Assembly (NCBI GenBank): GCA_034663965.1
Contig: JAXDIO010000154.1
Coordinates: forward strand, 6,872 to 70,871
Direction: 5' to 3'
DNA from: Thermoanaerobaculia bacterium
GTDB lineage: Bacteria; Acidobacteriota; Thermoanaerobaculia; Gp7-AA8
DNA length: 64,000 nucleotides
How positions within the stretch are numbered: the stretch's first letter is position 1; each line of letters opens with the position of its first letter. A program made the translations under genes and the position numbers. Under the pieces are notes generated by a model. It saw only the letters and a program-made list of their open reading frames with translations. It ran no database searches and was not told where the DNA came from. Shown here one piece after another: positions 57,958 to 59,991 of this stretch.

Positions 57958-58496
57958 GACTCGCTCCCTTGCGCGATCGCTTTCAGACCGCGCGCGCCCA
58001 GCAACCACTCGCAGACGATCCACGCCAGGAGCGTTCCGACGAACGCACCGCCGCTGAGAAGCAGCGTGATCGTCTGCCACTGTGCGTACGCGGCCACTCC
58101 CTGACCGATTGCGCCGCCGAGGAGTCCTCGGGCTCCGAACGACATCGACTGGCATGTCGTGTAGCGGGGATCGATCGCGGCGAAGATGCCGCGGCCGAGC
58201 GGCGCGAGCCGCGGCAGCCCGACCACCACGAATTCGACGAACAGCAGCGCCACCGTTCCGCCGACCCAGACGCGGGCACGCGCCAGCGTCATCAGCCACC
58301 AGCGCCGCCCGAGCAGCATCGTTCCGATCGCGAGGAGAAAGGCCAGCCCGGCGGCGCTGATGACGCCGATCAACACCATCTGCGCGTACGCCTGATCCCA
58401 CTGAAGGCAGTCAATCCGGCGCGGCGCCGGTAGTGCTGTCTGCGCGGCGATCTCGATGAGCGATAATAGACACAACGACCTAAGAACGATTCGCAT
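57954..58496 (-). CDS. polytopic membrane protein (signal peptide + several TM segments)
   Basis: The start was trimmed to MRIVLRSLCLLSLIEIAA. Hydrophobic segments are present throughout. The stop overlaps the tubulin-like start. Confidence 0.55.
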   Translation of the reverse strand: MRIVLRSLCLLSLIEIAAQTALPAPRRIDCLQWDQAYAQMVLIGVISAAGLAFLLAIGTMLLGRRWWLMTLARARVWVGGTVALLFVEFVVVGLPRLAPLGRGIFAAIDPRYTTCQSMSFGARGLLGGAIGQGVAAYAQWQTITLLLSGGAFVGTLLAWIVCEWLLGARGLKAIAQGSES

Positions 58497-59991
58497 CTTT
58501 GTCTCCTGCGCCATCGGCATTTGCCGGACGCACGTTGGCGATGACATTGACCAGGACCACAAGAAAGAGGAGCTCGATCAGGTTGGCGATCGAGACGAGG
58601 AACTTCGCCCAACTGCTGATCGGGACGATGTCGCCGTAACCGGTGGTAGTGATCGTGTAGATCGTGAAGTAGAGGTAATCGATGAGGTCGAGCTCGCGCG
58701 GCAGCGAGCTCGTGCCGACCATCCTGGAAACGTTCATCTGCGTTTCGCGAAGCTTCCCGTCGGCGAATGGCACGGCGACGGTGTGCACGTTCACTTCGAC
58801 CGTCAGTTTCCGGTCCGTGGTCGGCGCGTCGGCATTGAGCGACGGTTCGAGAAACGACTCCTCGTTGGAGACGCCGTACGACAGCCACCGGATCGATGGC
58901 TCGGCGCGCCCCTCTGTGGCCTTGCGGAATTCGTTCTGCAGCAGGAGCATCACCTGATCGGCGCGTTGCTTTGAGATCTCGTAGTTGGAACCGTATGGCG
59001 GCGCTGGACCGTTGCGGACGGAGGCATCGTTCGCGTGTCCGCGAACCTCGACGAGGTAGGAGTTCGAGTCCTGGTCGTGCGCGTCCTTGCGAAAGACGCT
59101 GCGGAGCGCGTACAGCTCGTGCAGGTTCCACGCTGCGGCCCCATAGACGTCGTACTGTCCCGGATGCGGCACGCCGCACACGCCGAGAGCCTCGAAGCGC
59201 TGGCGGCGCGTGTTCATCCCCTCGTTACAGACTTCCTTCTCCAACGCCGGGCTGCCATCCAGTGCTTTATCGAGCTTCTCTGTGCATGCGAGAGTCGCCG
59301 CCGACTGGACGAAAAAGAACTTGCGCACCGTGGCCGCGTCACCAGAACTGCAGCCAGACGCCGCGGGCTCCGGCTGCGGCGCAACCGCCGGCTGTGGACC
59401 GTTGCTTTTCACGGCGCGCGCTTTTGCACCGGCCAGCCGCGCGGCCCACAGCTCGCCACGTCCATACCGGTCGCTGAATGCGAGCGCGAACGCCAGAAAG
59501 TAGGTGATGTGCAGAAATGCGACGACGAGGCCGCAAAGCGCCAGGACCTTGTCGCTGCGCAGTTCGTCGAGGCTACCGTAGCTCCACCGGTTCGAACGGC
59601 CGGAGTCTGGCCGCATCAGTCTTGCCGCCGTCCCGACCATGGCCGTGGCGACGATCATGGCCACGCCGAATGCCGCGGCACTCAACACCCAGATCAACGC
59701 TGCGGGCGGGCTTGACCAGCGTTCGAAGACAATCCAGGTCCAGACGAATGCCATCTTGACGGTTTCGCAATGCGCCAGTTCGTTGCTGAACCTGGAGTCT
59801 GGCCGCTGCTCGCGTAGAACGAGGTAGTCGAGGCAGATGGACAGCGACAGCAGAACGGCTGCGAAAAACGATGCTTCTGTCGTCAGCAGCGCGACGAACG
59901 CGACGAGCGTTCCGAGTGCCAGCATGCTGCCCAGAGGCAGCCATTTACGGCGTGATGGAGAAGCGGCCAATACTCCTGGTGCGACGGTCAT
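58480..59991 (-). CDS. membrane protein with OmpA-like segment and C-terminal K+-channel pore (TTTGYGD selectivity filter)
   Basis: N-terminal TM helices are present. The central block LVEVRGHANDAS...YEISKQRADQVMLLL is OmpA_C-like. The C-terminus LYFTIYTITTTGYGDIVP + TM is a 2TM K+-channel pore signature. Confidence 0.7.
   Translation of the reverse strand: MTVAPGVLAASPSRRKWLPLGSMLALGTLVAFVALLTTEASFFAAVLLSLSICLDYLVLREQRPDSRFSNELAHCETVKMAFVWTWIVFERWSSPPAALIWVLSAAAFGVAMIVATAMVGTAARLMRPDSGRSNRWSYGSLDELRSDKVLALCGLVVAFLHITYFLAFALAFSDRYGRGELWAARLAGAKARAVKSNGPQPAVAPQPEPAASGCSSGDAATVRKFFFVQSAATLACTEKLDKALDGSPALEKEVCNEGMNTRRQRFEALGVCGVPHPGQYDVYGAAAWNLHELYALRSVFRKDAHDQDSNSYLVEVRGHANDASVRNGPAPPYGSNYEISKQRADQVMLLLQNEFRKATEGRAEPSIRWLSYGVSNEESFLEPSLNADAPTTDRKLTVEVNVHTVAVPFADGKLRETQMNVSRMVGTSSLPRELDLIDYLYFTIYTITTTGYGDIVPISSWAKFLVSIANLIELLFLVVLVNVIANVRPANADGAGDKDANRS

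Follow-up and report, generated by a model that had tools for sequence, protein, structure and literature searches.

What does a potassium channel contribute to an operon whose conserved genes encode a ZorA/ZorB-like pair, a tubulin-like protein and an Hsp70-like protein? The question arises from a 64,000-nt stretch of DNA, in the following called the window, from a Thermoanaerobaculia bacterium of the Acidobacteriota (assembly GCA_034663965.1, contig JAXDIO010000154.1, positions 6,872 to 70,871 of the forward strand). The gene in question lies on the minus strand at 58480..59991. It has an ATG start, a Shine-Dalgarno sequence AAGGAGG located 13 nt 5' of the start, and a product of 503 amino acids (aa), in whose translation TIYTITTTGYGDIVP was found. 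The open reading frame (ORF) call, Pfam, a structure model obtained with AlphaFold2 (AF2) and the homologues together describe a K+ channel of six helices that carries a MotB/OmpA-like insertion in the periplasm. This architecture is well supported: the turret, which links the outer helix to the pore helix, holds an insertion of approximately 255 periplasmic residues.

The carboxy-terminal region of the protein reads ...LIDYLYFTIYTITTTGYGDIVPISSWAKFLVSIANLIELLFLVVLVNVIAN... and holds a pore helix (aa 436-447), the selectivity filter TTTGYGD (aa 448-454, 58630..58650 on the minus strand, checked by translation) and an inner helix (aa 460-486), the whole segment spanning 58534..58686 on the minus strand. 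The Pfam family Ion_trans_2 matched aa 431-486 with E=1.3e-12 and 47.9 bits, the cut-off being 22.5; at such a significance TTTGYGD is not a chance motif. The profile of the channel family, compared with the PDB, retrieved K+ channels only, with LmK (4h33) as best match (4.9e-6), followed by KirBac3.1, Shaker, NaK2K and KcsA, and all these alignments were restricted to the part from the pore helix to the inner helix. In Foldseek, the pore segment of the AF2 model superimposed on KirBac3.1 and Kv1.2 with a root mean square deviation of 1.5-2.4 Å over 50-56 residues. The prediction that the protein ends in a K+-channel pore was thus confirmed, including the pore-helix geometry and the membrane context. 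Viral Kcv-type channels resemble the protein solely along the stretch from pore helix to inner helix, and a search of PHROGs gave only pore-level matches to phage K+ transporters. Residues D438, Y441, F442, Y445, G451, Y452, G453 and D454 were invariant among 41 relatives. The inner helix (aa 461-486, 58534-58611 on the minus strand) contains no glycine at all, and its polar residues N470, E473 and N482 were invariant in 40 of 41 relatives. L474, L477, V481 and A485, all hydrophobic, are presumably the equivalents of the pore-lining residues of KcsA, and in a hand alignment with KcsA we take E473 to be the counterpart of G99, the glycine of the gating hinge. One claim on this region had to be abandoned. 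The original prediction described the last ~70 aa as a minimal channel pore with two transmembrane (TM) helices, and this part holds only the pore helix, the filter and the inner helix. The residues ahead of the pore helix are hydrophilic and the Ion_trans_2 match begins at profile position 20 (positions 20-75 of 79), therefore a complete 2TM pore is rejected.

The outer helix has to be sought further upstream. The AF2 model, based on an alignment of 41 sequences, had a mean predicted local distance difference test score (pLDDT) of 84.5 and a predicted template modelling score (pTM) of 0.75. It contains four membrane helices at aa 20-36, 39-62, 67-91 and 97-126, which make up an N-terminal bundle (aa 20-126, 59614..59934 on the minus strand) that is also marked by invariant columns and by the distribution of lysine and arginine residues (K+R). 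A short linker helix (aa 140-146) and a long fifth helix (aa 148-178, 59458..59550 on the minus strand) come next, followed by an alpha/beta domain (aa 181-426), the pore helix (aa 436-447), the filter and the inner helix (aa 460-486). The protein ends 17 residues beyond the inner helix and has no cytoplasmic gating domain. The fifth helix carries the motif AFLHxTYxxxFALAFSDR, the strongest conservation outside the pore; A158, F159, L160, Y164, A169 and D174 are invariant in the close channel family, and across 41 distant relatives F159 is invariant, L160 and D174 nearly so. Helix 148-178 is the sole candidate for the outer helix (S5/M1) of the pore and would pack as such. The predicted cytoplasmic parts carried 3, 1, 4 and 3 K+R (N-terminus, loops 2-3 and 4-5, C-terminus), the short periplasmic loops 1-2 and 3-4 carried 0 and 0. 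This distribution, together with conserved cysteines in the insertion, indicates a channel with both termini inside the cell and the MotB/OmpA-like domain in the periplasm, where the peptidoglycan is. A voltage sensor, or a canonical voltage-gated channel of six TM helices, was considered and ruled out: the helix 97-126 (AALIWVLSAAAFGVAMIVATAMVGTAARLM) has a single arginine at its end and no arginine ladder. The voltage-gated models of NCBIfam matched the pore only, with 25 bits as against cut-offs of 300-425. Helix 3 of the bundle contains the invariant charged residues E76 and K79.

The periplasmic insertion covers aa 179-435 (58687..59457 on the minus strand), as delimited by AF2 secondary structure, pLDDT and cysteine positions. 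It starts with a proline-rich linker of low confidence (aa 188-205), continues with a cysteine-containing helical subdomain and a MotB/OmpA-like domain, and closes with a second linker. The cysteines 214, 236, 255 and 272 are kept across the close channel family. The core of the insertion (aa 279-405, 58777..59157 on the minus strand) was assigned by Foldseek and by its motif, with a Pfam match below threshold. Searched against the PDB with the whole channel model, Foldseek placed MotB periplasmic domains first (3s0h, 5y40 and 2zvy; probability 1.0, E about 1e-2), the top-ranked ones originating from H. pylori and Salmonella. All 19 best PDB matches were MotB or putative MotB-like periplasmic domains (probability 0.72-1.0), and ZorB (8vvn) as well as the peptidoglycan-binding domain of SiiA (6qvp) matched the model, too. 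On the sequence level the resemblance is faint: Pfam OmpA scored 16.2 bits on the channel, it reached E<=0.01 in 16 of 41 relatives, no relative with a listed OmpA score attained the cut-off (top score 26.8 bits), and NCBIfam added a weak TssL OmpA match. The conserved motif reads RGHAND...YGSNYEISKQRADQV, where D322 closes the first part and R343 the stretch YGSNYEISKQR, which is followed by ADQV. Among 17 close homologues G318, H319, A320, R343 and A344 were invariant, and D322 was present in 15 of the 17. R343 was retained in 39 of 41 channel relatives; N336 and S340 also belong to the conserved positions of the OmpA-type motif. We take D322 and R343 to correspond to the Asp and Arg that contact the peptidoglycan (diaminopimelate) in OmpA-like domains. 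According to the structure model, the core of the insertion has a MotB/OmpA-like fold, with a resemblance that is weak by sequence and clear by structure, and it would be expected to bind peptidoglycan. An OmpA-like middle segment, as originally read from the sequence, is therefore real and divergent. The further reading as a fusion to an N-terminal multi-TM region and an OmpA-like block stood with respect to the modules and fell with respect to their linear order, since the OmpA-like domain is inserted in the turret.

This layout is not confined to a single protein. A word-indexed search yielded 40 channel relatives, 17 of them full-length at 31-52 % identity; all derive from metagenomes or metagenome-assembled genomes (MAGs), and the names given to them were 'ion channel' or 'hypothetical protein'. 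In a profile search, 1.84 billion cluster representatives yielded 164 clusters at E<=1e-30 and 414 at E<=1e-10; in many of these, a single uninterrupted alignment runs through the OmpA-like part and the pore. The exact filter TTTGYGD was present in 157 of 171 sampled family proteins. The distance from the last TM helix to the filter was 154-417 aa, with a median of 256, in all 147 members with a locatable TM helix. The pattern-based scan of 185,579 species genomes matched only two, both Thermoanaerobaculia MAGs. The exact 503-aa protein was absent from a collection of 15 billion proteins, in which the closest match was 52 % identical; locus L001 carries a channel fragment with 93 % identity. 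In tblastn, neither the channel nor the tubulin-like protein had a match among 72,556 plasmids. The channel layout defines a metagenome-only family of uncultured Acidobacteriota and other metagenomic bacteria, and with all members coming from uncultured or metagenomic bacteria the family has escaped experimental attention.

Downstream of the channel, six genes on the same strand constitute the conserved core: a small membrane protein, an FtsZ/tubulin-fold protein, an Hsp70-like protein, a membrane protein of ~511 aa, a ZorA-like and a ZorB-like protein. The channel gene is translationally coupled to this core; its last 17 nt are also the first of the next gene, and the genes further downstream follow one another closely, overlapping by 4 nt or separated by few nucleotides. 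The first core gene (57954..58496, minus strand) encodes a 180-aa membrane protein with a signal-like N-terminus and TM helices. It was found in all examined cassettes, thus also in those that lack a channel.

The second core gene (56641..57957, minus strand) encodes a 438-aa protein with the loops GGTGQ and GGTGGG. Its AF2 model (pLDDT 89, pTM 0.91) matched CetZ, FtsZ, tubulin or PhuZ in 50 of the 50 best Foldseek PDB hits, with E from 8e-5, so that the label tubulin-like, given earlier from the sequence, was borne out by the fold. The fold search alone settled the identity: a sequence profile of the family gave no match in the PDB, an hhalign comparison with a Tubulin_2 protein was not significant, and PF13809 Tubulin_2 was detected on 3 of 113 homologues and not on the protein of the window itself. 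In the collection of 15 billion proteins the latter is present with 100 % identity, as a protein from a Thermoanaerobaculia MAG, which places the window in this lineage. The third gene (53562..56639, minus strand) codes for 1025 aa with an Hsp70/actin-like ATPase in the C-terminal half, recognised by the motifs DFGTTNT and ADMGGGTLD and by a PDB profile search. All 60 PDB matches listed for this family profile were of the Hsp70 family (DnaK, BiP, Hsp70, mortalin), the best with E=9e-4; the Hsp70-like label, also part of the original prediction, thus finds modest support.

The fourth gene (52030..53565, minus strand) encodes the ~511-aa membrane-anchored protein, with an N-terminal TM helix and the motifs DSSGSM and TDG. 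D83, S85, G86, S87, T168, D169 and G170 are invariant in its alignment. The motifs are reminiscent of the metal-ion-dependent adhesion site of domains of the von Willebrand factor A (vWA) type, an unconfirmed assignment: neither Pfam nor a PDB profile search nor an hhalign comparison with a VWA_2 protein gave support for vWA. Should it be a vWA protein, it would connect the cassette with the FtsZl1/vWA operons. The fifth gene (50117..52033, minus strand) encodes a 638-aa protein with three TM helices and an alpha-helical tail of ~440 aa. PADLOC assigned it to ZorA with E=1.7e-7 and NCBIfam to ZorA_3 with E=8.4e-6 (24.9 bits, cut-off 250), mostly over the tail, and Pfam MotA_ExbB did not match; a ZorA-like protein is therefore a candidate assignment of modest strength. 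The sixth gene (49458..50120, minus strand) encodes a ZorB/MotB-like protein of 220 aa, with a TM helix that bears the conserved Asp (PAFVDLFSALLL) and a peptidoglycan-binding domain of the OmpA family, for which Pfam OmpA scored 27.7 bits, the NCBIfam MotB family E=8e-12 and ZorB2 E=1.6e-4. Among the other operon proteins submitted, PADLOC matched neither ZorC/ZorD nor ZorE nor ZorF/ZorG.

The association of channel and core recurs. Channel homologues with 52 % (L003/L004), 44 % (L005-L007) and 37 % identity (protein P0015 in L008) occupy the same position before the same genes, and the 30 % identical protein P0023 is encoded convergently to the same six genes (L012). The suggestion that the fusion might recur beside tubulin-like and Hsp70-like genes was therefore confirmed, with the same order in L003, L005 and L008 and a convergent arrangement in L012. 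The relative P0021 (447 aa; L009, 3378-8705) is divergent from genes for a VWA_2 protein, a 1105-aa Tubulin_2 protein and a 1423-aa protein kinase; this locus is a second kind of tubulin-like system linked to the channel family.

A sampling independent of the channel was obtained by finding cassettes via the tubulin-like gene, which gave 18 distinct cassettes whose upstream sequence extends over 2.5 kb or more. A K+ channel gene was present in 5 of these 18. Wherever the tubulin-like protein was at least 67 % identical to that of the window, every cassette with upstream sequence had the window-type channel. The group at 58-61 % identity had a different K+ channel of 924 aa in the same slot (L015, 6665-9439; L022, 6485-9444), which shares with the window channel 45 % identity over 44 aa in the pore only and bears a C-terminal extension of ~440 aa; in L022 it is apparently split into two ORFs of 554 and 463 aa. 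In more distant cassettes the slot held an AAA ATPase, a kinase-FGE-sulfatase protein, FHA or FHA-GAF-sigma-54 proteins, or nothing. From the constant six-gene core and the variable upstream slot it follows that the channel is an accessory, optional module. The flanks of the cassettes vary among the loci, with integrase or prophage genes at L016 and L017.

Further genes adjoin the operon on both sides. Upstream of the channel (60053..61209, minus strand) are a serine-protease-like protein of 312 aa and a 73-aa protein, their genes overlapping by 4 nt. The 312-aa protein (60271-61209, minus strand) matched phrog_20754, annotated as 'protease', with E=1.4e-31, whereas the best Pfam family, Nal1_C, gave E=2.6e-5. 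This pair is present in L003 and L005 and missing from L008. Downstream of the core (43869..49450, minus strand) are a CHAT protease (471 aa), a helix-turn-helix/sigma-like protein (278 aa) and a zf-HC2/TPR/CHAT protein (1081 aa); Pfam matched zf-HC2 and, with E=3.4e-24 and 2.3e-52, CHAT. The downstream genes thus comprise two CHAT proteases and a sigma/anti-sigma-like pair, and a CHAT gene lies 3' of the core in L003 and L005 and is absent from L008.

What is the channel for? Its functional link to the ZorAB-like/tubulin-like/Hsp70-like cassette is well supported, and the channel is probably the effector or the envelope sensor of a Zorya-like conflict system. With a probability of about one half we favour a tetrameric, K+-selective channel that serves as the output of a Zorya-like envelope-surveillance system of Acidobacteriota. 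The output role is proposed by analogy with ZorAB of Zorya, a proton-driven, peptidoglycan-binding motor that senses phage invasion and signals via its tail (PMC11946911). Tetramer formation, conduction, peptidoglycan binding, gating trigger and immune role of the channel are inferred. Four subunits would form the K+-selective pore, with the wall-binding domains tethered by two flexible linkers each; the ZorA/ZorB-like pair would act as a peptidoglycan-anchored, ion-driven motor with a long cytoplasmic tail. The pore would open once the system is triggered, or upon displacement of the channel's own wall-bound domain. An open channel would cause a loss of K+ and turgor and clamp the membrane potential near the K+ equilibrium potential, and this may arrest the cell or the invader. 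K+ channels were recruited to the cassette at least twice independently, which suggests that selection has favoured controlled K+ release as an output or signal in the surveillance of the envelope. The original prediction had proposed a membrane-depolarising effector of the abortive-infection type. The variable slot at the head of the cassette fits an effector, and it fits a sensor or input equally well. The word depolarising is not justified: a K+-selective filter drives the potential towards the K+ equilibrium, that is to K+ loss and possibly hyperpolarisation, and does not abolish the potential as a non-selective pore would. A bolder version, which we regard as speculative, is a channel gated from outside by wall attachment. 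The four MotB-like domains would sit as a peptidoglycan-bound cap over the pore, and their loss or strain, caused by a phage, a lysin or the spike of a secretion system, would open it. The channel would then be both detector and K+-releasing output of an undescribed Zorya-like immune machine with a tubulin-like filament and an Hsp70-like ATPase.

Several observations weigh against the favoured explanation. Of the 18 cassettes, 13 lack a K+ channel, hence the channel is dispensable for the core function. The slot also accommodates signalling proteins (a kinase, FHA proteins, a sigma-54 activator), which fits an input or regulator as well as an effector. The distant relatives P0019, P0036 and P0038 reside in unrelated neighbourhoods. 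The OmpA score of the insertion stays below the Pfam cut-off for PF00691 of 27.2 bits, and in the hhalign comparison of the channel family with the ZorB-like protein of the operon the OmpA motifs were aligned with E=0.0085 and low probability. The packing of helix 148-178 as outer helix of the pore is a position that we infer. PADLOC had no model for the channel and returned only weak ZorA tail matches in the operon; no model of a defence database thus speaks for an immune role. Finally, Makarova and Koonin (2010) proposed membrane remodelling and not immunity for operons of FtsZ-like, vWA and OmpA proteins (PMC2875224).

The best-surviving alternative places the channel at the other end of the system. 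Its wall-bound domain would report a damage or displacement of the cell wall by penetrating phage tails, lysins or a type VI secretion system (T6SS), and the K+ flux, or a conformational change, that follows would activate the core. Short linkers connect the wall-binding domain with both the outer and the pore helix, where a K+ channel is mechanically sensitive, and there is no cytoplasmic ligand-binding domain in a protein that stops 17 aa past the inner helix. The kinase, FHA and sigma-54 proteins of the slot in other cassettes speak for an input as well, and ZorAB is thought to sense perturbations of the envelope via its peptidoglycan-binding domain (PMC11946911). However, with the ZorB-like protein the core already has a peptidoglycan-anchored candidate sensor, and it manages in most cassettes without a channel. 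With its K+ filter strictly conserved, the channel would seem to matter through the flux itself, be it as a signal or as damage. We consider a sensor possible, yet clearly less probable than an output.

A role outside conflict appears unlikely. The cassette may be a machine for envelope or membrane remodelling or for surface motility, in which the channel would provide local control of K+ and turgor or compensate the charge moved by the motor. Such a machine would agree with the proposal of Makarova and Koonin, with a core that has a tubulin-fold protein and two peptidoglycan-binding proteins, and with the search results of Pfam, PADLOC and NCBIfam, which revealed no nuclease or classical toxic effector in the six-gene core. 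Traits of conflict systems stand against it: the patchy distribution of the cassette, the differing flanks and the integrase and prophage neighbours in L016 and L017, and also the CHAT proteases, the protease with phage relatives and surroundings that encode T6SS, RHS and STAND NTPase proteins. An ordinary housekeeping K+ channel that happens to lie beside the operon, or a degenerate, non-conducting wall anchor, is very improbable: some distant family members do live in unrelated neighbourhoods and NCBI names one homologue just 'ion channel', but the gene is translationally coupled, synteny persists to 37 % identity (P0015/L008) and linkage after rearrangement to 30 % (L012), a sister clade recruited a second, unrelated K+ channel to the slot, the family is rare (the two species genomes of the pattern-based scan), and the invariant filter and pore helix argue against a loss of conduction.

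The wider window contains genes for a T6SS (VgrG, ClpV-like), RHS and STAND NTPase proteins. In the T6SS-type region (10114-33906) a ClpV/ClpB-like AAA+ ATPase is encoded at 10114-12702 and VgrG at 26851-28908. The same region holds a 1495-aa TIG-repeat protein with a C-terminal PLD (22331-26818) and a PKD-repeat protein (31831-33906, minus strand). The motif TGAGFGD in the TIG-repeat protein was rejected as a chance match, as it has no membrane context. At 36411-43069 on the plus strand are a MotA_ExbB-like gene (PF01618, E=2.3e-5), unannotated ORFs of 313 and 425 aa and an nSTAND3 NTPase of 841 aa; this set, whose distance to the operon's end is 1 kb, is a possible second stator-based system of the Zorya-like type. 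The ORF 61450-62253 (minus strand), immediately upstream of the operon, had a weak RHS-repeat match and possibly represents part of a polymorphic toxin gene.

If the proposed architecture is true, a K+ channel carries a folded cell-wall-binding domain in the loop around the external entrance of the pore, and it offers a natural test of extracellular gating by a mechanical or wall-derived cue. For the field of immunity, it would point to an uncharacterised system of seven genes and more that combines a Zorya-type motor with tubulin-like and Hsp70-like proteins.

In its pore, the window channel is alike to the known prokaryotic P-loop K+ channels (KcsA, LmK/Lmo2059, KirBac3.1, the pore of KvAP and Kv channels): a pore helix, the signature T-x-G-Y-G-D, the sequence GYGDxxP...W and a hydrophobic inner helix. 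It differs by a globular insert of ~255 residues where these have a short turret, by the filter variant TTTGYGD and by the lack of an RCK, CNBD or Kir-type cytoplasmic domain. Two-pore-domain (K2P) channels have a cap, a helical hairpin of ~55 aa in the M1-P1 loop, at the equivalent position between outer helix and pore helix, and in the bacterial glutamate receptor GluR0 the pore is inverted and the binding domain split around it. Both share with the window channel the principle of an extracellular or periplasmic domain beside a K+-selective pore, where it influences access or gating; to our knowledge, neither the K2P cap nor the GluR0 domain binds the cell wall, and the K2P cap binds no ligand either. 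A K+ channel with a peptidoglycan-binding domain in the pore turret was found neither in the library of papers searched nor among solved structures, and a literature search for K+ channels in anti-phage defence, or for Zorya with tubulin, retrieved nothing relevant. With MotB, ZorB and Pal (PF00691) the insert shares the motif GH[AT][DN]...N..[LI]S..RA and the predicted periplasmic location. In those proteins the domain follows a single TM 'plug' helix, whereas in the window channel it lies inside the pore loop and is preceded by the cysteine-containing helical subdomain.

As a system, the operon resembles Zorya in having a ZorA-like and ZorB-like pair, the ZorA scores being weak and falling mostly on the coiled coil, and in the pattern of a constant motor with differing partners. 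It differs from Zorya in these partners, which are a tubulin-fold protein, an Hsp70-like protein, membrane proteins and an optional K+ channel; ZorC-ZorG were not detected by PADLOC. The FtsZl1 (Tubulin_2)/vWA/OmpA/kinase operons (PMC2875224) are similar with respect to the tubulin-fold and OmpA-family genes and, in some variants, kinase or FHA genes. The GTPase-centred conflict systems of Kaur et al. 2020 (PMC7159879) likewise include tubulin and HSP70 components. The terms 'potassium', 'ion channel' and 'MotA' are absent from the texts of both papers (PMC2875224, PMC7159879). DO-GTPase and GAP1 were not recognised in the operon, to which no dedicated models were applied. In the window channel neither the pore nor the wall-binding fold is new by itself; the novelty lies in how the two are combined topologically and in the system that surrounds them.

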